Assembly (NCBI RefSeq): GCF_900232105.1
Contig: NZ_LT934425.1
Coordinates: forward strand, 2,460,001-2,492,000
Reading direction: 5' to 3'
DNA from: Candidatus Kuenenia stuttgartensis
GTDB taxonomy: Bacteria; Planctomycetota; Brocadiia; Brocadiales; Brocadiaceae
Length of the DNA: 32,000 nt
Program-made: the position numbers and the translations under genes
Notes under the pieces: generated by a model
Seen by the model: only the letters and a program-made list of their open reading frames with translations
What the model was told of the DNA's origin: nothing
Database searches by the model: none
Part shown: positions 4,513-22,705 of the stretch, piece after piece
Layout of the letters: every line of letters starts with the position of its first letter
How positions within the stretch are numbered: position 1 is the stretch's first letter

Positions 4513-4665
4513 GTACATCGTTTCGTTAAAATGCGTACGTAAAAAAATGTCATTGCGATGAGTGGAGCGACTAAGCAATCTCTTGTTCCAAAAGGACTTA
4601 AGATTGCTTAGCTGTTGCTCACAATGACGGTATCAATGTAGATTTTTAATGAAACGCTATACTAG
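4513..4665. repeat. 153-nt hairpin repeat, copy 1 (partner at 20157-20309)
   Basis: Near-identical to 20157-20309. It contains a long inverted repeat at 4550-4627: TCATTGCGA..GCGACTAAGCAATCT / AGATTGCTTAGC..CACAATGA. Confidence 0.85.
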
Positions 4666-6935: not shown

Positions 6936-6992
6936 ATGAAGTCGGAAGAAAAATATCTCCTCGCTGTGAATGGTGGCTCTTCCAGCATCAAG
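6936..6992 (+). pseudogene. 5' remnant of an acetate/propionate kinase gene, cut off by a repeat block
   Basis: MKSEEKYLLAVNGGSSSIK matches the N-terminal phosphate-1 motif (N-x-GSSS-x-K) of acetate kinases. Homology stops where duplicated block 6989-7777 begins. The frame ends 8 codons later. Confidence 0.35.
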
Positions 6993-7199
6993 TTATTCAT
7001 AAGTACCGCAATATAATAAGTTACACATATAATATCCATGTAACAGAGAGGGACGGAGTCCAGGCACTGTTTTTCTTTTTACCAAAACGAGTGATATTGA
7101 CATAGCTTACGGCGACAAGGAGTGTAAGGGACATTATCTTATAGAAGAAGAGATTCGGAAGCTTCCGATCATCGTATCGGCGTGAAGAATATTGTCTTT

Positions 7200-7349
7200 G
7201 ATGTAGAGAGTAAGATGTCATCCTGATTTTTAATAAATATTGCATGCTTGTCCGCTTGTCAGCCTGTTTTGACCTTTGACCGCTCACTGCCAACTGTCTA
7301 TTATCTAATCAACCATTTAACGTCTTAACGACTCAACCGTTCTAATGCA
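7200..7349 (+). repeat. R element copy 1 (about 150 nt, precedes heptamer array)
   Basis: GATGTAGAGAGTAAGATGTCATCCTGATTTTTAATAAAT...CAACCGTTCTAATGCA is shared with 16985-17134 and 17988-18146. Confidence 0.8.
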
Positions 7350-7370
7350 GACCTCTGACCTCTGACCTTT
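7350..7370 (+). repeat. heptamer array, 3 units (GACCTCT type)
   Basis: gacctct gacctct gaccttt, directly after R element copy 1. Confidence 0.7.
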
Positions 7371-7413
7371 GCCAGTTTTCCGCCTTACTTTTTATAAATG
7401 GGGAATGTGCTAT

Positions 7414-7678
7414 ATGCCTATTAAATATGATATAGAAATACCAGAAAGAGTGATAAAAGCGCTTGGTTTGCGTGAAAGTGAAGTAAGTGAAACGCTAAAA
7501 AAAGAACTTTCAGTTTATTTTTTTTGAAAAAAAACTTTTAAGTTTTGGTCAGGCAAGACAATTTTCAGGGTTATCAGTATGGGACTTTCTGGAATTTTTA
7601 AGAGAAAGGAAAATCCCTTTGCATTATGATTTGGCTGAGTATGAGGAAGATTTAGAAACAATCAGGGAATTATCATAA
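7414..7678 (+). pseudogene. UPF0175-family antitoxin, frameshifted copy
   Basis: Same sequence as 17248-17511, but the T-run before GAAAAAAAA has 8 T here versus 7 in the intact copy. This gives ...LSVYFF* and a shifted frame. Confidence 0.8.
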
Positions 7679-7777
7679 TGCCTGTTGTTATCTCCAAAGG
7701 CTGTGTATAAGGAAGTTGTTGTAGAAGGAAGAGGAAAACAGGGAGCAAATGTAATAGCGGAGGCATGTAAAGAATGG
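7678..7777 (+). pseudogene. DUF3368/PIN-like toxin, remnant with internal deletion and 3' truncation
   Basis: Starts ATGCCTGTTGTTAT like 17511. It lacks about 80 nt present in the intact copy (17531-17610 region), and homology ends at 7777. Confidence 0.75.
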
Positions 7778-10726: not shown

Positions 10727-10953
10727 TCGGAGACGGAACCTCATTTGACAAAAAATTTTTATAGAACATTCTAATATTGAAGCGGATGTTCTTTTACGTG
10801 TTCTTTGTGATGACCCTCCAGTTGATGCGATTGAAGAATCAGGAGGGGTAATCGTGAGTTACGAAGAAGATAGAGAACCTGTCAGTGTGGCTCAAGTTCC
10901 GGGGCACCATACATAATTATTGACTTCATTATTAAAATAGTTAAGAGGTGTTC

Positions 10954-11583
10954 ATGTCCGGAATTGCTCGTGTGGTAGTTCCGGAAACGCCACATCATAT
11001 TACTCAACGAGGAAGTCGACGTATGCAGGCATTCTTCTGCGACTAGGATTGTGAGGCTACATAGACTTGACGTTTCAGTGGTGTAGGCGCTCAGACATTG
11101 AAATATGGGCATATTGCTTGCTGCCAAACCATGTACACCTGATTAGGTTCCGCCCTCTGAAAATGCGCTTAGCCAGGCGATTGGAGAAGCGCATCGACGC
11201 TACACACATCGCGTAAATTTCCGGGAAGGCTGGAGAGGCCACCTGCGGCAAGGACGTTTTGCCTCTTTCCCAATAGACAAAACCCATTTGTGTTTAGCCT
11301 AGTGGCACATTTTGCCTGTGCGGAATACAGGCAGGAATGCCTGTACCACCCTTGCAATAAATTTTATTATTCATCTTCCGAAAACCTTATTTTTTTGACT
11401 ATATTTACAAAAAATCGGGAATGCACCCTTGCTGGGAGAGATGATCGTCTTGTGCATGGAGAGCCGTTGCTTGAGATGTTTGGCAAGTGGGACGAGTTTC
11501 TTTCCAGAGGTCTATCGGAAGGAGAAGTTGAAAAGGACCGATGTCATGAGCGAGCCGGAAGACCTCTTAGCGCCGACAGTTTT
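10954..11583 (+). pseudogene. RAYT / IS200-like Y1 transposase, dead copy A
   Basis: MSGIARVVVPETPHHITQRGSRR..., with a TAG at the FFCD* position, 1-nt deletions, and a central segment replaced by foreign repeats (11300-11427). The 3' end is cut by the MITE at 11584. Left inverted repeat GGGGCACCATAC at 10901-10912. Confidence 0.8.
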
Positions 11584-11724
11584 GGGAGCATTCCCGATTT
11601 TTTGTAAGTGTTCATGGAGTTGGGGCAAAACAACCCTGACAGGGTTTCAAACCCTGTCAGGGTTAACACTACTGTACGTTTTATTAAAACATGGCGGAAG
11701 TCACAAAAAATCGGGAATGCACCC
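11584..11724. mobile_element. 141-bp MITE, copy A
   Basis: Terminal inverted repeats GGGAGCATTCCCGATTTTTTGT ... ACAAAAAATCGGGAATGCACCC. Central 33-nt palindrome at 11632-11664. The left flank is GACAGTTTT. Confidence 0.8.
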
Positions 11725-13107: not shown

Positions 13108-13269
13108 CCTGTTTGCTGATAGATAGGGAATAAAATCACAGGGTTAAGACAGTTTGTAATTTGTCAAGTCAGACCCGCACTGGAAACAAAGTTTCCAGTG
13201 CAATTGATAGTTCTGGGGACATCATACATAAATTATTGACTTCATTATTAAAATAGTTAAGAGGTGTTC

Positions 13270-14103
13270 ATGTCCAGAATTGCGCATATGGTAGTTCCGG
13301 AAACGTCACATCATATTACTCAACGAGGAAAACGACGTTTGCAGACATTCTTATGCGACGAGGATTATGAGGTATACATAAACTTGACGTTTCAGTGGTG
13401 TAGGCGCTGGGACATTGAAATATGTGCATATTGCTTGCTGCCAAACCATGTACACCTGATTGCGGTTCCGCCCTCTGAAAATGCGCTTAGTCAGGCGATT
13501 GGAGAAGCGCATCGACGCTACACACGCCGCGTAAACTTCCGGGAAGGCTGGAGAGGACGCCTGTGGTAAGGACGTTTTGCCTCTTTCCCAATGGACAAAA
13601 CCCATTTGTACTTAGCCGCACGCTATGCTGAACTGAATCTGGTGAGAGCAACATTAGTTAAGAAACTGCAGGGGCACCGATGGGGTAGCGCATCCGCGCA
13701 CATTGCTGGGAGAGATGACCGTCTTGTGCCTGTAGAGCCGTTGTTTGAGATGTTTGGCAAGTGGGACGAGTTTCTTTCCAGAGGTCTATCGGAAGGAGAA
13801 GTTGAAAAGGCCCGATGTCATGAGCGAGCCGGAAGACCTCTTAGCGCCGACAGTTTTGGGTGTATTCCCGATTTTTTGTGATTTCCGCCATGTTTTATGA
13901 AACGTTGCAGTAGTGTTAACCCTGACAGGGTTTCAAACCCTGTCAGGGTTGTTTTGCCCCGACTCCATGAACGCTTACAAACAATCGGGAATGCACCCGA
14001 CAGTTTTTTAGTCCAGCTTGAAAATGCTCCTGGAAGAATACTCCATAAGCAAGAATCTGGCCCAAAGAGGTCTCAAAAGGAAAAGAAGCATCTCCAAAAT
14101 TGA
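13270..14103 (+). pseudogene. RAYT / IS200-like Y1 transposase, copy B (least damaged)
   Basis: HUH motif PNHVHLIAV. C-terminal helix AARYAELNLVRATLVKK..HRWGSASAH. In-frame TAA at 13567-13569 where copies A and C have CAA (LW*GRFAS). MITE inserted at 13858-13998. After the MITE the tail resumes (DSFLVQLENAPGRILHKQESGPKRSQKEKK*). Flanking inverted repeats at 13215-13227 and 14104-14115. Confidence 0.85.
13858..13998. mobile_element. 141-bp MITE, copy B, with 9-bp target-site duplication
   Basis: TIRs GGGTGTATTCCCGATTTTTTGT / ACAAACAATCGGGAATGCACCC. Palindrome at 13918-13950. Direct repeats GACAGTTTT at 13849-13857 and 13999-14007. The interior is reverse-complemented relative to copy A. Confidence 0.85.
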
Positions 14104-14401: not shown

Positions 14402-14688
14402 AGACGGAGTATATATCAAGTTTTATAAAGGATTTGGGAGCGCTAAAAGGTTCCCATTATTATGAGAAGATTAAAACTATGGTTTTCGAAGATATTCCCA
14501 AATTACCTGATATAGACAAAGTGAAGAATTTAAGAAAGTTAAAAAATAACAAACCATATTACCGGATTCGTATTGGGGAATATAGAATAGGAGTTAGATT
14601 GAATAATAATACACTGGTTTTATGCGTAACACGTAAATATACAGATTTTCGAAATTTGCTCGCCAATAATTTGAAAATTTTCAGTTAA
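14398..14688 (+). CDS. RelE/ParE-family toxin whose 3' end is replaced by an IS630 fragment
   Basis: KLKNNKPYYRIRIGEYRIGVRLNNNTLVLCVTR is the RelE/ParE beta-sheet core. From 14652 on the sequence is identical to the IS630 end at 15445, so the last residues are foreign. Confidence 0.6.
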   Translation: MKTEYISSFIKDLGALKGSHYYEKIKTMVFEDIPKLPDIDKVKNLRKLKNNKPYYRIRIGEYRIGVRLNNNTLVLCVTRKYTDFRNLLANNLKIFS

Positions 14689-14929
14689 AAGAGTAGACAA
14701 TTCATCTGTATACTCGTTAATATTTTTGAAAAAACTTAAACATTTGTTTTTAAACTTCTCATAAGTATCATAATACTTGTTATACAATATTTTCCATAAT
14801 TTGCGAATAGAATTTCCATAATCTTTCAATGAGATTTAAATTGGGCGAATAGGAAGGGAGAAATTTGATCTTTATTCTCGAATTTGCAAGGTATTCTTTG
14901 ACCAACTGACCTGTAATATTTAGCATTAT
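14652..14929 (-). mobile_element. IS630-family element, 3'-terminal fragment (duplicate of 15445-15725)
   Basis: Near-identical to the 3' end of the full copy. It encodes the transposase C-terminus ...YNKYYDTYEKFKNKCLSFFKNINEYTDELSTLLTENFQIIGEQISKI on the minus strand. Confidence 0.8.
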
Positions 14930-15444: not shown

Positions 15445-16480
15445 CAGATTTTCGAAATTTGCTCGCCAATAATTTGAAAATTTTCAGTTAAAAGAGTAGA
15501 CAATTCATCTGTATACTCGTTAATATTTTTGAAAAAACTTAAACATTTGTTTTTAAACTTCTCATAAGTATCATAATACTTGTTATACAATATTTTTTTG
15601 CGAAAGAATTTCCATAATCTTTCAATGAGATTTAAATTGGGCGAATAGGAAGGGAGAAATTTGATCTTTATTCTCGAATTTGCAAGGTATTCTTTGACCA
15701 ATTTAGACCTGTAATATTTAGCATTATCAGAGATTATGTAAATAGTACCGGCTTGAGCATACCTTGACTCTATTTCATGGAAAAGCTTTATTGTTGATTG
15801 AGCATTGATGCTTTCATCTTCCCGGATTGTTACTTCAAAGGTTTCTATGTCAATAGCCCGTTTAAATTTATTCTTTTCCTGCCGGTATTAGAGGGTATTT
15901 CCTTCTTTTTGCCTTTCTCTATCCAGCAATATGCAGACGTAGAATTGTGCTGTGGATGAACTCCATCCATAAAAAGTATCTTATCTCCGGGGGCTTTCTC
16001 TTCTTTGAGTTGTTTGTAGTTTTCGATAAATTCTTTTTGTTTTTCAGGGTTTGCTTTGCCTGGAACTATTGTAGTTTTCTTGTAAGTAAAGCCTAATCTA
16101 TCGAGGGTATGTACCATTCCTTCGGGTGTATAGATTTTATTGAATGTCTGTTTTACATATTCAACAATTTCTTTTGCCGCACTATAGTTGTTTTTCCTGA
16201 TATGATCTTTTAATTGTTCTTCTTGTTCGCAGGTGAGTTTTGGCACACAGCCAATATAATTGTCAGATAAAAGCCCGTCAAAACCTTTATCTTTGTATAG
16301 TTTTTCGTAATTCCTGATTGTTTGATCGTCTAACAAGAGCGCCTCTGCTACTTCTTCATAACTCCATCCTGAATCAAGAAGAAGTATAGCTTTGATTCGG
16401 TCGGCATGACGTCTATGAGGCTCTTTCTTATGTGCTTTTTTAAATTCTATTCGGGTTTTTTCACTGAGAAATGGATTCAT
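15445..16480 (-). mobile_element. IS630-family insertion sequence with frameshifted transposase
   Basis: 16480..15845 encodes the HTH N-terminal part (RIKAILLLDSGWSYEEVAEALLLDDQTIRNYEKLYKDKG) and the first D (ILFMDGVHP). The frame breaks at about 15850 (NLNGLLT* versus expected NLNGAIDIET). The remainder (IYIISDNAKYYRSKLVKEY...SYSPNLNLIERLWKFFRKK) lies in another frame to 15444. The upstream end and TIRs were not identified. Confidence 0.8.
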
Positions 16481-16984
16481 GCAGAATTTAATACTCTAGA
16501 AACAATTCAAATGCAAGAAAAAAACAGGTTCTTCTAAAAATAAATGCTTTTTACTATCGCTACTCAATTTGTCCCAGACCTCAGACTTCAACTATTTAAC
16601 AAGTTTTCCCATTTCTGGATTGACAATCCCCGAAGAAGTGTTTATTATGCCAAACGTTTGAAATTCTAAACGTTTAACAATTCAAACAATTCTTTACTGC
16701 CACGCGCATAGGTAAACGGACTGTAAGGGTGACGTCTAACATGGAGCGACAATCTCGTTTCACTGGCAGGCGGGCAAGTTATTCATAAGTACCGCAATAT
16801 AATAAGTTACACATATGATATCCATGTAACTGAGAGGGACGGAGTCCAGGCACTGTTTCCTTTTTACTAAAACGAATGATATTGACATAGCTTACGACGA
16901 CAAGGAGTGTAAGGGACATCACCTCATAGCGGAAGAGATTCGGAAGCTTCCGATCCTCGTATTGACGTGAAGAATATTGCCTTT

Positions 16985-17134
16985 GATGTAGAGAGTAAGA
17001 TGTCATCCTGATTTTTAATAAATCTTGCATGCTTGTCCGCTTGTCAGCCTGTTTTGACCTTTGACCGCTCGCTGCCAACTGTTTATTATCTAATCAACCA
17101 TTTAACGTCTTAACGAATCAACCGTTCTAATGCA
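16985..17134 (+). repeat. R element copy 2
   Basis: Same about 150-nt sequence as 7200-7349 and 17988-18146. Confidence 0.8.
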
Positions 17135-17169
17135 GACCTCTGACCTCTGGCTTCTGACTTCCGATCTTT
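17135..17169 (+). repeat. heptamer array, 5 degenerate units
   Basis: gacctct gacctct ggcttct gacttcc gatcttt. Confidence 0.7.
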
Positions 17170-17247
17170 GCCCACTTACCTCGAATTTGAACTATTTACC
17201 CTTTGCCAGTTTTCCGCCTTACTTTTTATAAATGGGGAATGTGCTAT

Positions 17248-17511
17248 ATGCCTGTTAAATATGATATAGAAATACCAGAAAGAGTGATAAAAGCGCTTGG
17301 TTTGCGTGAAAGTGAAGTAAGTGAAACGCTAAAAAAAGAACTTTCAGTTTATTTTTTTGAAAAAAAACTTTTAAGTTTTGGTCAGGCAAGACAATTTTCA
17401 GGGTTATCAGTATGGGACTTTCTGGAATTTTTAAGAGAAAGGAAAATCCCTTTGCATTATGATTTGGCTGAGTATGAGGAAGATTTAGAAACAATCAGGG
17501 AATTATCATAA
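17248..17511 (+). CDS. UPF0175-family antitoxin
   Basis: MPVKYDIEIPERVIKALGLRESEVSETLKKELSVYFFEKKLLSFGQARQFSGLSVWDFLEFLRERKIP has the typical UPF0175 layout. Its stop overlaps the toxin ATG (TAATG). I prefer the ATG at 17248 to the track start at 17203. Confidence 0.7.
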   Translation: MPVKYDIEIPERVIKALGLRESEVSETLKKELSVYFFEKKLLSFGQARQFSGLSVWDFLEFLRERKIPLHYDLAEYEEDLETIRELS

Positions 17512-18014
17512 TGCCTGTTGTTATTTCCAATGCTTCTCCATTAATAGGACTTGTGGGAATTGAACAACTGCATATCTTAAGAAAATTATGGTCGGAAATA
17601 GTTATTCCTGAGGCTGTGTATAAGGAAGTTGTTGTAGAAGGAAGAGGAAAACAGGGAGCGAATGTAATAGAGGAGGCATGTAAAGAATGGATAAGAGTTG
17701 TTTCTGTGAAAAACAGGCCAGAAGTTGAAGTATTGCAGACCATTCTTGATGAAGGCGAAGCCGAAGTTATAACGCTGGGACAGGAGATTAAAAAAAGCAT
17801 TCTTTTACTTGACAACAGAGAGCCACGTAATTTTGCAAGGACTGTTAATCTGAAAATGATTGGCACAGTTGGTGTTATTAGATTTGCATGGACGAAAGGC
17901 TTAATAAAAGAACCAATCCATGAGATAAATAAGTTACGGTTGAACGGCTTCTGGATAGGCGAGAAACTTATTGAGCAGTTTAAAAAAGATGTAGAGAGTA
18001 AGATGTCATCCTGA
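17511..18014 (+). CDS. DUF3368-family PIN-like toxin
   Basis: 167 aa: VVISNASPLIGLVGIEQLHILRKLWSEIVIPEAVYKEV...DEGEAEVITLG...LLLDNREPR. DUF3368 is the usual partner of UPF0175. The last 9 codons come from R element copy 3. Confidence 0.7.
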   Translation: MPVVISNASPLIGLVGIEQLHILRKLWSEIVIPEAVYKEVVVEGRGKQGANVIEEACKEWIRVVSVKNRPEVEVLQTILDEGEAEVITLGQEIKKSILLLDNREPRNFARTVNLKMIGTVGVIRFAWTKGLIKEPIHEINKLRLNGFWIGEKLIEQFKKDVESKMSS

Positions 18015-18146
18015 TTTTTAATAAATCTTGCATGCTTGTCAGCTTGTCAGCCTGTTTTTGACCTTTGACCGCTCACGGCCAAACTGCCAACTGTTTATTA
18101 TCTAATCAACCATTTAACGTCTTAACGACTCAACCGTTCTAATGCA
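17988..18146 (+). repeat. R element copy 3 (overlaps 3' end of the PIN-like gene)
   Basis: Same sequence as copies 1 and 2, with an extra 8 nt (GGCCAAAC). Confidence 0.8.
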
Positions 18147-18174
18147 GACCTCTGACCTCTGACTTCAGGCCTCT
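18147..18174 (+). repeat. heptamer array, 4 units, immediately upstream of the four-helix-bundle gene
   Basis: gacctct gacctct gacttca ggcctct. Confidence 0.75.
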
Positions 18175-18181
18175 GGATAAT

Positions 18182-18562
18182 ATGAAAATTGAATCAGCTA
18201 AGGATTTGCGGGTGTATCAGAAAGCTTATGCACTTGCTATGGAACTGTTTGAACTTTCGAAAGAATTCCACTGTGAGGAGCGTTTTGCTCTTACAGATCA
18301 AATACGCCGATCATCAAGATCAGTCTGCGCCAACCTGAGAGAAGCTTGGGCAAAAAGGCGTTACCCTGCACATTTTGTAAGCAAACTTACAGACTGTGAC
18401 GGAGAAAACAGTGAAACAGATACATGGTTAGACTTTGCACGAGACTGCAACTACATTACGGACAAACATCATAAGGAGCTGACGTCTATTTGCTTAGAAG
18501 TTGGAAAAATGCTTGGGAGTATGATCAATAATCCAAAGCCGTTTCTGATCTCCGCCCCCTGA
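18182..18562 (+). CDS. four-helix-bundle protein (23S rRNA intervening-sequence protein family, Avd-like)
   Basis: 126 aa: LRVYQKAYALAMELFELSKEF..EERFALTDQIRRSSRSVCANLREAWAKRRYPAHFVSKL..DGENSETDTWLDFA is the family signature as I know it. The last 5 codons and the stop lie inside the downstream heptamer array. Confidence 0.8.
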   Translation: MKIESAKDLRVYQKAYALAMELFELSKEFHCEERFALTDQIRRSSRSVCANLREAWAKRRYPAHFVSKLTDCDGENSETDTWLDFARDCNYITDKHHKELTSICLEVGKMLGSMINNPKPFLISAP

Positions 18563-18630
18563 TCTCTGACCTCTGACCTCTGACCTCTGGTCTCTGGTCT
18601 CTGATCTCTGACTTCTGACCTATGACCTCA
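18547..18630 (+). repeat. heptamer array, 12 units (consensus GACCTCT)
   Basis: gatctcc gccccct gatctct gacctct gacctct gacctct ggtctct ggtctct gatctct gacttct gacctat gacctca, counted by hand. Confidence 0.9.
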
Positions 18631-18681
18631 GATTAAAACCAATTAACGAATCAAAAGATAAATGTTACAGAAAGAGCATCA

Positions 18682-19686
18682 ATGGAAATAATCAATCCAC
18701 ACGACAAATTTTTCAAAGAGACCTTTTCCATAAAGAAAAATGTAATCGATTTTCTCCAGGGAACATTTCCCCCTGAAATTTTGAAAAAGCTGGATTTATC
18801 CACTTTAACACAGGATAATAATTCATATATCGACGAAGAACTAAAAGAACATTTCTCAGACATTGTATATACCTGTTTCTGTAAAGACAAAGAACTCCGG
18901 ATAACCCTTTTATTCGAGCACAAGAGTTATGCCGTAGCATGTCCGTATCTACAGTTGATGAAATACCTTTTAAAGATATGGGAAGCAAACAGCAAGCAGT
19001 CACAAAGGCTCATGCCGGTAATTCCGGTGATATTGTATCATGGCAAAGATGCGTGGAAAGTCAGGAGATTCAGAGACTATTTTGAAGGGATAGACGAGGT
19101 ATTCTTTAGATTTATACCGGAATTTGAATATCTGCTGACGGATCTGAGTTGTTATAGTAATGAGGAAATAAAGGACAGGGCATTTAGAAGGGTATCCCTT
19201 CAAATAACCATGTTATTAATGAGGAATATATATAATGACAAAATTCTGGGAGACAAGCTAAAGGCATTCTTTGAAATAGGGAAGCAGTATTTTGAAGAGG
19301 GTGAAGGATTAAAGTTTCTGGAAAGTGTGATCAGGTATTTGTACTATGCGTCGGATATAGAGGAAGAAAGGGTAATAGATACCCTAAAAGAGATATCGGA
19401 AGAAGGAGGTAGATTAAGCATGACAATAGCAGCCAGATTAATAGAAAAAGGCAAAATGGCCGGTAGGGCGGAAGGTAAAGTAGAAGGTAAAGTAGAAGGT
19501 AGAGTAGAAGGCCGGATAGAAGGCCTAAAAGAAGCGATAGAGATTGGTTTGGAGCTAAAGTATGGCGTTGAAGGTTTAAGGCTTCTGGAACGTATCAGTA
19601 AAATAGTAGTAATAGAGAAACTGGAGGCAATAAAAGAGGCGGTGAAAATATCAAAGAATATGGAAGAAATTGAAAAATTGCTCTAA
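18682..19686 (+). CDS. Rpn-family recombination-promoting nuclease / putative transposase (PD-(D/E)xK, YhgA-like)
   Basis: 334 aa. N-terminal PHDKFFKETF, then FSDIVY...LLFEHKS (the D...E-x-K nuclease core). The C-terminal helical region has EGKVEGKVEGRVEGRIEG repeats typical of this family. Confidence 0.8.
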   Translation: MEIINPHDKFFKETFSIKKNVIDFLQGTFPPEILKKLDLSTLTQDNNSYIDEELKEHFSDIVYTCFCKDKELRITLLFEHKSYAVACPYLQLMKYLLKIWEANSKQSQRLMPVIPVILYHGKDAWKVRRFRDYFEGIDEVFFRFIPEFEYLLTDLSCYSNEEIKDRAFRRVSLQITMLLMRNIYNDKILGDKLKAFFEIGKQYFEEGEGLKFLESVIRYLYYASDIEEERVIDTLKEISEEGGRLSMTIAARLIEKGKMAGRAEGKVEGKVEGRVEGRIEGLKEAIEIGLELKYGVEGLRLLERISKIVVIEKLEAIKEAVKISKNMEEIEKLL

Positions 19687-19937
19687 CATGAAAAACTCAT
19701 ATCGTAACAATTTAGCTTGCCGCAGAGAACGCTGGGACTTCGTCGTGAGCTCAATCGAACAATCGCAGAGGTTTTTAGGAGATAAAAACAGAAAATTATG
19801 CAGGTGCCCACGGGTATTTGTTTTCTCCGTGTTATCCGCGCCCTTTACGGTGAACTATTACCTCATATCTTATCCATGAAATATGGAAAAGAACTAAATT
19901 CACTGGTCAACTCATTAGAAAAAAAGACTCGACCGCA

Positions 19938-20007
19938 GACCTCCGACTTCTGCCCTCCGACCCCTGACTTCCGACTTCTGACTTCTAGTCTCTGCCCTCT
20001 GACTTCC
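19938..20007 (+). repeat. heptamer array, 10 degenerate units
   Basis: gacctcc gacttct gccctcc gacccct gacttcc gacttct gacttct agtctct gccctct gacttcc. Confidence 0.85.
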
Positions 20008-20095
20008 GGGTGTATCAGAAAGCTTATGCACTTGCTATGGAACTGTTTGAACTTTCGAAAGAATTCCCCTGTGAGGAGCGTTTTGCTCTTACAGA
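20007..20095 (+). pseudogene. four-helix-bundle gene fragment (codons about 10-39 only)
   Basis: CGGGTGTATCAGAAAGCTTATGCACTTGCTATGGAACTGTTTGAACTTTCGAAAGAATTCC.CTGTGAGGAGCGTTTTGCTCTTACAGA equals 18209-18297. Its 5' side abuts the heptamer array and its 3' side is cut by the small element at 20096. Confidence 0.85.
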
Positions 20096-20157
20096 GTAAC
20101 TGTTCAGCGTAAATATTATCGTTTAATACCGACTTGCTCCCAAACTCCGGTTTCTCG
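20096..20157. repeat. small insertion-type repeat, short form (partner 13002-13107)
   Basis: Starts GTAACTGTTCAGCGTA and ends AAACTCCGGTTTCTCG. It truncates the four-helix-bundle fragment. Confidence 0.6.
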
Positions 20158-20309
20158 TACATCGTTTCGTTAAAATGTGTACGTAAAAAATGTCATTGCG
20201 AGGAGTGGAGCGACGAAGCAATCTCTTGTTCCCAAAAGACTTAAGATTGCTTCGCTGTCGCTCGCAATGACGGTATCAATGTAGATATTCTAATGAAACG
20301 CTATACTAG
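20157..20309. repeat. 153-nt hairpin repeat, copy 2
   Basis: Partner of 4513-4665. The stem at 20193-20270 (TCATTGCGAG...CGACGAAGCAATCT / AGATTGCTTCG...CTCGCAATGA) pairs perfectly at both ends. Confidence 0.85.
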
Positions 20310-20453
20310 ATTTAAAAATCCAGTAGATATTAAAACTTTTGTTGCTAATGGTAAAAGGAAGGCCGAAAGCTGAACTGAAAAAGATTCCTTTTAGTTCTGG
20401 GGACACCATACATAAATTATTGACTTCATTATTAAAATAGTTAAGAGGTGTTC

Positions 20454-21290
20454 ATGTCCAGAATTGCGCATATGGTAGTTCCGGAAACGCCACATCATAT
20501 TACTCAACGAGGAAGTCGACATTTGCAGGCATTCTTCTGCGACTAGGATTGTGAGGCTACATATACTTGATGTCTCAGTGGTGTAGGCGCTGGGACATTG
20601 AAATATGTGCATATTGCTTGCTACCAAACCATGTACACCTGATTGGGGTCCGTCCTCTGGAAATGCGCTTAGTCAGGCGATTGGATAAGTGCATCGACGC
20701 TACACAAGTCGCGTAAACTTCCGGGAAGGCTGGAGAGGGCGCCTGTCACAAGGACGTTTTGCCTCTTCCTTAATAGACAAAACCCATTTGTACTTAGCCG
20801 CACGCTATGTTGAACTGAATCCGGTGAGAGCAAAATTAGTTAAGAAACTACAGGAGTACCGATGGAGTAGTGCACCGGCACACATTGCTGGGAGGTGCAT
20901 TCCCGATTTTTTGTAATTATCTGCACAATGTAACACAAGCATACTGCTTGTGATATTTAATACACAAGCTGCCTGCCTATACGGGTTGGCACAGGCATTT
21001 TGCCTGTGCGAAATACAGGCAGGAATGACTGTACCACCCTTGCTGGGAGAGATGACCGTCTTGTGCATGTAGAGCCGTTGCTTGAGATGTTTGGCAAGTG
21101 GGACGATTTTCTTACCAGCGGTCTATCGGAAGAAGAAGTCGAAGAGGTTAGATGTCATGAACGAACCGGAAGACTTCCTGGCGCTAACAGTTTTTTAGTC
21201 CAGCTTGAAAATGCCCATGGAAGAATACTCCATAAGCAAAAACCTGGCCCAAAGAGGTCTCAAAAGGAAAAGAAGCCTCTCCTGAATTAA
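20454..21290 (+). pseudogene. RAYT / IS200-like Y1 transposase, dead copy C
   Basis: Shares the TAG (FFCD*) and the adjacent 1-nt deletion with copy A. A 146-bp insertion sits at 20894-21039. The tail ...GANSFLVQLENAHGRILHKQKPGPKRSQKEKKPLLN* is intact and has no MITE. Inverted repeats at 20399-20411 and 21291-21302. Confidence 0.85.
20894..21039. mobile_element. 146-bp insertion with 9-bp target duplication TTGCTGGGA
   Basis: Direct repeats at 20885-20893 and 21040-21048; copy B has the uninterrupted site. The left end is GGTGCATTCCCGATTTTTTGT (MITE-type TIR). The right end is different, a hairpin-containing ...GCCTGTGCGAAATACAGGCAGGAATGACTGTACCACCC. Confidence 0.75.
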
Positions 21291-21330
21291 GTATGATGTC
21301 CCTGTAATTCCCAATGCTATTGCTGAACTT

Positions 21331-21552
21331 TTGAATAAAGAGCCTGAATTAAGGGAGAAATTGATAGTAGGCGCCTATATTGACGGAGAGATAAATCCTG
21401 GAAAAGCGGCAGAACTATTGGGGATTCACCCGGTTAAGCTGAGAGGGCAACTTTTATCAAAAGGCATACCTGTCAGGATAGGTGTAGAAACGATAGAAGA
21501 AATAGTAGCCGAAGGGATAGCTGCAAGAGGTACCAGGGAAAGTGCTGAATGA
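21331..21552 (+). CDS. UPF0175-like antitoxin, probably N-terminally clipped
   Basis: LIVGAYIDGEINPGKAAELLGIHPVKLRGQLLSKGIPV fits the UPF0175 HTH region. The frame is open upstream to the RAYT right end (IPNAIAELL...) with no ATG, and the track start is TTG. Confidence 0.45.
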   Translation: MNKEPELREKLIVGAYIDGEINPGKAAELLGIHPVKLRGQLLSKGIPVRIGVETIEEIVAEGIAARGTRESAE

Positions 21553-21557
21553 TACTT

Positions 21558-21748
21558 ATGGACAACAATGTCCTGTCAAACTTTGCCCTGATAGGAGAGA
21601 TAAACCTTCTACAAGACTACAGTTTGCTGAGAATGTGGATATTCAGACAGAGGAATTTTGTGAAGATATGGCTGCCAAAAAAATAGAATATGTCATAATG
21701 ATTGTAATCAACGATAGATACAGACATCGGCATATTCATGAGACATGA
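21558..21748 (+). pseudogene. PIN-like toxin 5' remnant
   Basis: MDNNVLSNFALIGEINLLQDYS resembles the first strand and helix of PIN toxins. The frame then breaks and the rest of the domain is absent. Confidence 0.3.
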
Positions 21749-21953
21749 GGGAGGAAAGATAGTATTTTTCAGGGTACCATATAAGACAAGAATTAATGAT
21801 AAATGGTGTCCTGTTGTCAGATATGATACTGCTCGTGGATTTGTACATGGGGATTTGATGAGTGTCAATGGAGATGTAAAGAAAACACCTTTATTTAATC
21901 AAGACAATAACAGTGCATTAACTTTTGCTGAAAATGATCTAAAATCTAATTGA
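21738..21953 (+). CDS. small protein of unrecognised family, possibly prematurely terminated
   Basis: 71-aa ORF (VVRYDTARGFVHGD). After TGA 21951-21953 the same frame stays open for 11 more codons to TGA 21987-21989, which overlaps the ATG of the next gene. Confidence 0.35.
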   Translation: MRHEGGKIVFFRVPYKTRINDKWCPVVRYDTARGFVHGDLMSVNGDVKKTPLFNQDNNSALTFAENDLKSN

Positions 21954-21988
21954 GAGTATTACAAAAAGAGATTTTTGGAGGAGGGGTG

Positions 21989-22267
21989 ATGTGCAAGGAA
22001 AAAGAAATGATAGAGCGCAATATTGAGCTAAGCGCTGAGTTTAGCAGGTATTTGTTTGAACATCCGGAAGTTGAAACAAAGATACCACTGGATGCAAAGG
22101 TTGTGCTTTTGCCTGAATTTGACAAAGAATTAAAGAGATTTAATCTTCAATTGGGAAAAAACATCGAAGCGGATGGTGGGCGGGTGGTATATATACTGAT
22201 CAAAAATATTCGCCCTAAGGTTTTGTCAAGAATAGAAAAAATAGAATTTGAACCTGTTGCGAATTAA
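21989..22267 (+). CDS. small protein, DUF5647-like (from memory)
   Basis: ATG at 21989 follows GGAGGAGGGG. The product MCKEKEMIERNIELSAEFSRYLFEHPEVETKIPLDAKVVLLPEFDKELKRFNLQLGK resembles that family. The track start at 21950 is less likely. Confidence 0.4.
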   Translation: MCKEKEMIERNIELSAEFSRYLFEHPEVETKIPLDAKVVLLPEFDKELKRFNLQLGKNIEADGGRVVYILIKNIRPKVLSRIEKIEFEPVAN

Positions 22268-22543
22268 GTGTTTTTCTCCATAGAGAAAATCTTAGAGGGG
22301 CTTCTCTGTGATAGATAAAAAGAGAATTGTAGAGAAAAGCGGCATGCTTGGCTTTGAAAAACACGAGGTGGAAAATGAAACTGCTGCTTATAAATCCATA
22401 TTTTGAATGGACGTGTTTATACGCCATCCATTGTCTTCTTGTCCTGGCTATCACATTAAAGATGCTGTTTTGAAATTAATTCAAGTAGTTTTGGAACGGG
22501 AAAAGAAGAAAAAGACGTAGGACTAAAAAAGGGGAGATATTCT

Positions 22544-22705
22544 ATGAGATGGGATGAATTTATAAGGGGAATTAAGAGGTTCTGTGGTTTTTTGCAAGAC
22601 CAGGTTGAGAAGGGGGAAAATAATCTTTTGAAATTTTGTGCCCCTTGCGTCTTTGCGTGGAACAATTTTCTCTTCCGGCTCGTTCGGGTTAGGCCATCTA
22701 AATGA
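22544..22705 (+). CDS. 53-codon ORF translationally coupled to the ABC exporter (hypothetical)
   Basis: ATG 22544 lies 8 nt after GGGGAG. Its stop TGA 22703-22705 overlaps the ABC start ATG 22702 (ATGA). The product is MRWDEFIRGIKRFCGFLQDQVEKGENNLLKFCAPCVFAWNNFLFRLVRVRPSK. There is no homology evidence. Confidence 0.2.
   Translation: MRWDEFIRGIKRFCGFLQDQVEKGENNLLKFCAPCVFAWNNFLFRLVRVRPSK

Follow-up and report, generated by a model that had tools for sequence, protein, structure and literature searches.

Intergenic tandem heptamers of cyanobacteria are known as short tandemly repeated repetitive (STRR) sequences, reportedly from the work of Mazel et al. in 1990. In heterocystous cyanobacteria, the STRR units are CCCCAGT, TTGGTCA, and CAACAGT. 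Tandem heptamers are also found in intervening sequences (IVS) of 23S rRNA that bear an open reading frame (ORF), as in Leptospira, Coxiella burnetii, and Azospirillum lipoferum 4B, where the loop encodes a PF05635/TIGR02436 protein (S23p) and the termini carry strain-variable heptamers. Such IVS are inserted at helix 9, 25, or 45 of the 23S rRNA. The IVS of C. burnetii presents two to three strain-variable GACAGAT heptamers upstream of the S23p ORF and a 28-bp terminal stem in which RNase III cleaves, and its ORF is seemingly untranslated and decaying (PMC4990558). A third kind is represented by the TAACTGA repeats of Beggiatoaceae, Cyanobacteria, and Bacteroidetes, which show 7-nt indels between strains and a patchy distribution across phyla, are often near starts (in forward orientation, within a few nt of the start codon), and have no known function; neither S23p-type genes nor paired inverted arrays are mentioned with them (MacGregor 2015, PMC4679880). 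The role of the ORF-bearing IVS and the S23p proteins, and that of the bacterial heptamer arrays, have been open for decades. The present work concerns a stretch of 32,000 nt of Candidatus Kuenenia stuttgartiensis (the window; coordinates are window positions), where arrays of the heptamer GACCTCT accompany genes for a four-helix-bundle (4HB) protein of the 23S rRNA IVS family (PF05635/TIGR02436). The evidence suggests that the IVS proteins and the heptamer arrays are faces of one module: the arrays are probably the arms of a conserved IVS-type module around the 4HB gene, of which Kuenenia carries a derived, same-sense form.

Relatives of the 4HB protein were collected in a scan with one genome per species, which gave 302 relatives. 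The best 80 of these 302 were analysed, and their loci contain 84 full-length 4HB genes (67-97% identical) picked by protein similarity alone. Homologues at 70-82% identity were very abundant, mostly on short contigs. In the first contexts fetched, the 4HB gene was placed between co-oriented operon genes, with (CAGAGGT/CAGAAGT)n upstream and (TCTGACC/TCTGACT)n downstream. An upstream array was present in 69 of the 77 genes that could be assessed on this side, and in 67 of those 69 its unit was inverted; a downstream array was found in 65 of 80 assessable genes, and the full inverted/direct arm pair in 52 of the 84 relatives. The hosts belong to more than 12 phyla, among others Planctomycetota, Verrucomicrobiota, Acidobacteriota, Desulfobacterota, Bacteroidota, and Ignavibacteriota, and also include Lentisphaerota, Kiritimatiellota, Clostridia, Cloacimonadota, and Anaerolineae. 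The question of whether 4HB genes of other phyla are flanked by heptamer arrays, raised in the original prediction together with the supposition that such a link had not been described, can be answered positively for several subfamilies. Full-text searches of the literature, repeat strings included, gave no account of it besides the Coxiella heptamers. The association between arrays and 4HB genes is real, general, and little described.

In the canonical form, the upstream array (RRTCAGA)n and the downstream array (TCTGAYY)n are reverse complements of each other, and therefore a transcript through the module can form a long stem whose loop contains the ORF. Concerning the arms of 61 elements, their median lengths were 45 and 39 nt, and the median energy of the arm-to-arm duplex was -47.6 kcal/mol versus -19.6 kcal/mol with a shuffled arm. 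In the minimum-energy folds of eight sampled whole elements, the arms are predicted to pair across the ORF over 20-65 bp. The correlation between the lengths of both arms was weak (rho = 0.24, p = 0.07). Regarding the gene context, 44 of the 61 4HB genes with both neighbours called were co-oriented with both of them. The consensus of 940 units, written for the downstream arm, is TCTGAYY, with frequencies of.88,.95,.84,.96, and.88 for its first five positions; conservation reaches 94-95% at position 2 and 90-96% at position 4, and the preferences are nearly alike in both arms.

Synonymous sites were saturated in 143 of 150 4HB gene pairs, whose proteins are about 76% identical, and the GC content of the ORF tracks that of the host (r = 0.85). 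These sequences indicate an old module, with strong purifying selection on its protein. The 4HB paralogues within one genome are only 66-80% identical in DNA, the Kuenenia pair (98% identical) being the sole exception. Since the paralogues are old there is no sign of ongoing movement, and recent mobility of the module was discarded on this basis and on the host-like GC of the ORF. Furthermore, no conserved integrase, recombinase, or other gene was found next to the module among the neighbouring called genes.

The same arrangement is present outside this subfamily. In a second one (B), (RGTTTCG)n was always upstream and (CGAAACY)n downstream in 6 independent contexts, and these arms neither overlap the stop codon nor abut the start codon. 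On one contig (L132), a subfamily-B gene lies 2.5 kb from a subfamily-A gene and each keeps its own arm unit. Moreover, 4HB genes on plasmids of cultured bacteria were inspected (12 genes with 28-59% identity to the Kuenenia query), and 9 of them showed complementary arms (duplex z <= -4) built from lineage-specific repeats. The upstream and downstream units are GACAGGT and ACCTGTC in Anabaena sp. 90, GGGTGTA and TACACCC in Calothrix, TAGTGAT (16 times) and ATCACTA in Bernardetia, GGGAARA and TTTTCCC in Geminocystis, and GCAGGGGA and CCCCTGC in Nostoc. The 4HB gene of an Oscillatoria PCC 7112 plasmid has same-sense arrays, as in Kuenenia. The match on a plasmid of A. lipoferum 4B lies within a 23S rRNA gene (Rfam LSU, 715 bits): this IVS is an insert of about 470 nt in which a 4HB ORF is flanked by (GGACRGA)n and (TCYGTCC)n. 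Canonical 4HB modules and true IVS share one design. Their units differ, being TCTGAYY in the former and GACAGAT (Coxiella) or GGACRGA (Azospirillum) in the latter, and the module of the window lies between protein genes, with no Rfam rRNA match in the window.

Two of the plasmid genes are inside CRISPR-cas operons, between cas6 and cas4 in pANA02 of Anabaena sp. 90 (L210) and after cas2 in pPg_04 of Pseudanabaena (L214). A study of cas loci noted 4HB genes within cas operons and did not mention their repeats.

According to the proposed explanation, the canonical module would sit between co-oriented genes of ordinary operons, each subfamily with its own repeat unit. A read-through transcript would fold into a stem enclosing the ORF in its loop, and this stem would be cut by RNase III, by analogy with the ORF-bearing 23S rRNA IVS.

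The Kuenenia locus departs from this form. Tandem Repeats Finder and a mismatch search with (GACCTCT)2 at <=3 mismatches gave five period-7 arrays in the window, all of the GACCTCT type on the + strand. Their non-randomness is clear, with 30 matches versus 1.5 expected and <=5 in any of 100 shuffles. Array 1 (7350-7370, 3 units) is inside a decayed segmental duplicate. Array 2 (17135-17169, 5 units) has the same sense as the genes and lies in what is presumed to be the 5' leader of the UPF0175/DUF3368 operon. Array 3 (18147-18176, 4 units) and array 4 (18547-18630, 12 units) are the 5' and 3' arms of 4HB copy 1, in the same sense, and array 5 (19931/19938-20007, 10-11 units) is the same-sense 5' arm of copy 2. 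Copy 1 (18182-18562, + strand) encodes a protein of 126 aa that matches PF05635 with 111.7 bits (cut-off 33.8) and TIGR02436 with 101.5 bits (cut-off 24). Copy 2 is a fragment in this strain (20008-20095, + strand; codons 10-38, a 97% copy of 18210-18297). The Rpn-family nuclease/Transposase_31 gene (18682-19686, + strand) is located between both units. The pair upstream consists of a UPF0175 antitoxin-like gene (17248-17511; PF03683, 78 bits) and a DUF3368 PIN-like toxin gene (17511-18014; PF11848, 31.6 bits), both on the + strand; they overlap by 1 nt at 17511 and qualify as a type II toxin-antitoxin pair.

The arrays, the gene calls, and their layout agree with the original prediction, including the three copies of the R element discussed below and the gene ends built from repeats. 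R copy 3 opens with the final 27 nt of DUF3368, array 4 supplies the TGA and the 5 codons before it in 4HB copy 1, and the 4HB fragment starts at codon 10, flush with the edge of array 5, which replaces the first ~31 nt of copy 2, ATG included. The upstream and downstream arms of copy 1 form a duplex no better than shuffles (z = -1.1), giving instead of complementarity a direct-repeat signal of -80 kcal/mol. Because both arms have the same sense, no stem is possible in Kuenenia, and the RNase III stem known from the 23S rRNA IVS cannot form. Same-sense-only arrays on both sides were found in 2 of the 84 relatives, the Kuenenia one (L111) and L185; in another (L126), a same-sense array lies beside the start codon and an inverted array further upstream. 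The Kuenenia locus is a derived, partly decayed same-sense pair of IVS-type modules and not a cassette system.

It holds two tandem copies of this rare form. The same-sense arm may arise by deletion of the inverted arm: the 3' arm of one element and the adjacent inverted arm of the next would form an unstable palindrome prone to deletion, and it is plausible that the deletion starts in the 3' arm of the upstream element and removes the adjacent inverted arm together with a variable length of the next gene.

At least 23 contigs, all of them apparently from Kuenenia assemblies, encode the exact Kuenenia 4HB protein, and the best-scoring set of genomic relatives includes a 97% relative from 'Candidatus Kuenenia sp.'. 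Ten Kuenenia loci were compared, among them CP049055.1, which we take to be Candidatus Kuenenia stuttgartiensis, and all of them are the same locus. Array 4 is hypervariable across these ten loci (67, 74, ~90, 116, and >132 nt), and its length differences are whole units of one type, such as GATCTCT x8 or GGTCTCT x12. Upstream of genes, the short arrays (array 2 among them) are invariant among the assemblies. Arrays gain and lose 7-nt units, a slippage-type polymorphism between Kuenenia strains that the original prediction had proposed to look for. The arrays would also seed small deletions and conversions.

Several results weigh against the IVS-type explanation. Strand-specific RNA selection was not significant (145 G.U-type versus 120 A.C-type oppositions, p = 0.14), and the arms of one element pair no better with each other than with arms swapped between elements. 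Although no stem is possible for the Kuenenia copies, the identical protein is encoded on all of the 23 or more contigs mentioned above, and assembly error could account for some of the differences in array length between assemblies. Furthermore, none of the 178 arrays on viral contigs has a 4HB gene or fragment nearby, and neither do 80 of the 238 arrays in the 4HB loci. As the stemless Kuenenia copies keep an identical protein, the stem is not needed to keep the gene; the negative strand-selection test leaves room for a DNA-level or protein-binding role of the arms; and the presence of same-unit arrays without 4HB implies that the arrays are not only 4HB arms.

The conserved units specific to each subfamily point to a recognition factor carried by the module, the 4HB protein being the obvious candidate. 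It is possible, although we hold it only tentatively, that the arrays are repeated DNA or RNA binding sites for this protein, like iterons, that the stem is secondary, and that arrays elsewhere in the genome are further targets in trans. The unit is conserved across phyla despite saturated synonymous sites, and it changes with the 4HB subfamily even within one contig, which argues against a host factor or mutation bias; nevertheless, co-inheritance of arms and ORF could give the same co-variation. The same-sense variants of Kuenenia and Oscillatoria keep both arrays and an intact gene, and same-unit arrays are found far from 4HB genes. Concerning the protein, the closest solved structures (2RLD and 2GSC) each have five chains in their deposited entry, a homopentameric state has been described for Xcc0516 (PMC4990558), and the 4HB family is related to the nucleic-acid-binding Avd. 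The array-bearing viral contigs without a 4HB gene, as well as the seemingly untranslated and decaying ORF of Coxiella, weigh against binding by a protein encoded in the module. Such binding is compatible with the IVS-type module, as the function of its arms.

The arrays without 4HB genes deserve some description. Away from these genes, the 80 loci hold about 1 array per 3.5 kb, and many are back-to-back inverted pairs. Free-standing hairpins without an internal ORF, in which a loop of 0-40 nt separates an inverted array from the direct array that follows it, were observed in L025, L029, L037, L043, L049, L119 (4125-4333), L133 (4091-4221), L134 (3924-4133), and L169 (4279-4392). The arms were also considered as flanks of other cassettes, and this was rejected as the 14 inverted/direct pairs without 4HB enclose nothing recurrent. 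A viral contig (L052, IMG/VR contig 3300033076_001536) carries seven (TCTGACC)n arrays on one strand within a 13 kb stretch and no 4HB gene; several of them end within ~25 nt of an ATG.

A rather improbable alternative is that the same-sense arrays of Kuenenia are simple-sequence contingency or leader elements, whose number of units tunes translation or coupling. They are pyrimidine-rich, unstructured, and just upstream of starts, with TGA in all three frames; all five are intergenic and on the sense strand, ending 5, 44, 51, and 78 nt before a start codon (the 5 nt are those between array 3 and the ATG of 4HB copy 1). The arrays of L052 near ATG codons and the TAACTGA repeats, with like 7-nt indels and a position just upstream of starts (PMC4679880), are in line with this possibility. 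However, the arrays upstream of starts are those that do not vary, and the only variable one is downstream of the 4HB stop codon. The solo arrays show no clear strand bias with respect to neighbouring genes (19 versus 13, from rough ORF-based calls with many spurious antisense ORFs), and the arms of subfamily B are also contrary to a leader function, being placed away from both start and stop. The TAACTGA repeats differ from the Kuenenia arrays in their unit, their host phylum, and their closeness to starts, and in that the latter are tied to one gene family.

The R element (about 150 nt, directly before an array) is found at 7200-7349, 16985-17134, and 17988-18146, on the + strand at each position, with 90-99% identity among copies. 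Its status as a recurring element held only in part: the three copies exist, but R was not found outside this locus, and copy 1 belongs to a larger duplicate and is no independent copy. This 0.8 kb segment (6989-7777, + strand) is a decayed duplicate of 16775-17690 with 93-96% identity, and holds R copy 1, array 1, a frameshifted UPF0175 gene, and a DUF3368 gene with an 80-nt deletion. R copy 2 begins with a 27-nt copy of the DUF3368 3' end, outside any ORF there, and contains two degenerate heptamer units (TTTGACC TTTGACC); copy 3 lies between the DUF3368 and 4HB genes. A sigma-70-like promoter site (TTGACC-17-TATTAT, 10/12, the best match of the region) is present at 17061-17089 on the + strand, with its -35 box derived from a degenerate heptamer unit. 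The motif is also in R copy 1, and in copy 3 an 8-nt insertion results in a 25-nt spacer. Each of the ten Kuenenia loci has 2-3 copies of R, which was absent from 180 other loci; the single metagenome match is the same locus. R is a spacer that was duplicated locally; it contains a promoter-like site and is not a mobile element. A dispersed or mobile element was discarded given its confinement to the Kuenenia locus and the position of copy 1 within the duplicate, and a structured RNA since copy 3 folds no better than its shuffles (z = -0.12). Homology with the region upstream of Pyrinomonadaceae 4HB genes was rejected too, the alignment being unconvincing: both share only TGACCTTTGAC (two degenerate units) and the promoter-like layout. 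On a metagenome contig (L191, 4780-4830, reverse strand), an element splits R copy 3 at a point 29 nt ahead of the array; it encodes a 627-aa protein, a candidate insertion-sequence transposase.

The original prediction considered R and the arrays as recombination or insertion sites that shuffle small accessory cassettes, with the arrays as boundaries between unrelated genes. This did not hold for the arrays as boundaries, and it is now a quite unlikely explanation overall, with an element of truth in that small rearrangements concentrate at the arrays: 5' truncations of 4HB genes that are bounded by an array, and one gene conversion. The 4HB gene is cut at an array edge in the window (codon 10), in Kuenenia sp. 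Bin_40, where an array joins the ORF interior at ~codon 87, and in Tangfeifania, where two such junctions leave two C-terminal fragments. In L006, gene conversion has replaced the 5' region of 4HB copy 2 with the R-bearing version that belongs to copy 1. A UPF0175/DUF3368 pair, of the same family as that of the window and in a different phylum, is inside a split 4HB gene of Tangfeifania. On the other hand, the arms recurrently enclose nothing but 4HB, R is restricted as indicated above, the paralogues are old, and the module has no conserved integrase or recombinase beside it. Furthermore, the large strain differences break outside the arrays. Copy 2 is intact in assemblies L003, L006, and L010; in the window it is cut at 20095 by a strain-specific segment of 2.6 kb (20096-22698) with an IS200-like repeat and small genes. 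This segment is missing from L003 and L006, where the intact 4HB gene and its 3' arm are followed by ~500 nt and the ABC transporter gene. One of the large breakpoints falls within the 4HB gene (20095), another 3 nt before the start codon of the ABC transporter gene (22699), and another just after Rpn (19695); none falls in an array.

Two further loci can be described here. In Tangfeifania diversioriginum DSM 27063 (L149, 2780-4810), a 200-nt inverted arm, an intact 4HB gene, a 3' arm, and a C-terminal 4HB fragment are followed by the second 4HB gene split by the toxin-antitoxin pair, then another array and another fragment. L195 and L201 share an identical 4HB element (both arms and the downstream gene) with a different upstream gene, and they diverge right where the 5' arm has its outer edge, either because the arm was the site of a rearrangement or because the assembly was joined at the repeat.

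The Rpn nuclease was considered as a partner or mobiliser of 4HB and discarded, since it adjoins 4HB only in Kuenenia and no arrays accompany the other Rpn copy of the genome. In the C-terminal part of the Rpn gene, (EGKV)n is encoded by a tandem repeat of 12 nt (GAAGGTAAAGTA) at 19471-19534.

Concerning other known systems, the Drosophila Foldback transposons have long, variable inverted arms of short tandem repeats, back-to-back or enclosing a coding loop. They are an architectural analogy only, being eukaryotic and with documented transposition, whereas no mobility was seen for the 4HB module. The resemblance to STRR proposed in the original prediction stands as regards the intergenic tandem heptamers, but the host is a planctomycete and the unit (GACCTCT / TCTGACC) differs. 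The fold of Avd, an accessory protein in diversity-generating retroelements, is a related four-helix bundle (PF22296, 44.6 bits), but with NF033474, the model for Avd, the score is only 40.5 bits and the cut-off is 80. Within 10 kb, the Pfam matches listed for called genes include no reverse transcriptase domain, and the window showed no pair of template and variable repeats. Integron cassettes are single genes without promoters, from many families, bounded by recombination sites and served by an integrase. They differ in that the arms described here enclose only 4HB ORFs or nothing, and no integrase domain is among the Pfam matches listed for the called genes of the locus. Rfam at gathering thresholds gave no family anywhere in the window; on four canonical loci, its single match was a chance microRNA-like one on an array hairpin, and the modules were discarded as a known RNA family.

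The IVS-type module is common outside rRNA, in operons for polysaccharide synthesis, respiration, transport, and CRISPR-Cas of many phyla. It explains the frequent contig breaks at 4HB genes and their 'inserted' look between genes of unrelated operons. Canonical elements are present in cultured organisms, which makes both the question of the IVS proteins and that of the arrays testable. A broader and rather speculative possibility is that 4HB proteins and short-repeat arrays constitute one ancient two-part system, with each subfamily recognising its own unit, both in 23S rRNA and in operons; many of the unexplained heptamer arrays between bacterial genes, among them the STRR-like, TAACTGA-like, and viral hairpin arrays, could then be its cis sites or relics.

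Other repeats were observed in the window. A repeat of 0.7-0.9 kb, with remnants of an IS200/IS605-like (Y1_Tnp) transposase, is present in three copies (10892-11605, 13208-13879, and 20392-21315) that are 80-96% identical. Two of them precede a 33-nt palindromic pair, AACCCTGACAGGGTT..AACCCTGTCAGGGTT (11632-11682 and 13900-13950), and the whole looks like a system of the REP/RAYT type (repetitive extragenic palindromes and their associated tyrosine transposase). A 105-nt repeat at 4542-4646 and 20185-20289 (92% identical) has strong internal inverted symmetry, cattgcgag..gcgacgaagcaatct / agattgcttcgc..ctcgcaatg, and is a possible miniature palindromic element. Finally, the stretches 14642-14905 and 15445-15701, ~800 nt apart, are 100% identical and represent a recent local duplication; the second one overlaps the 3' part of an IS630-like (DDE_3) transposase gene, which is one gene of 345 aa in other assemblies.

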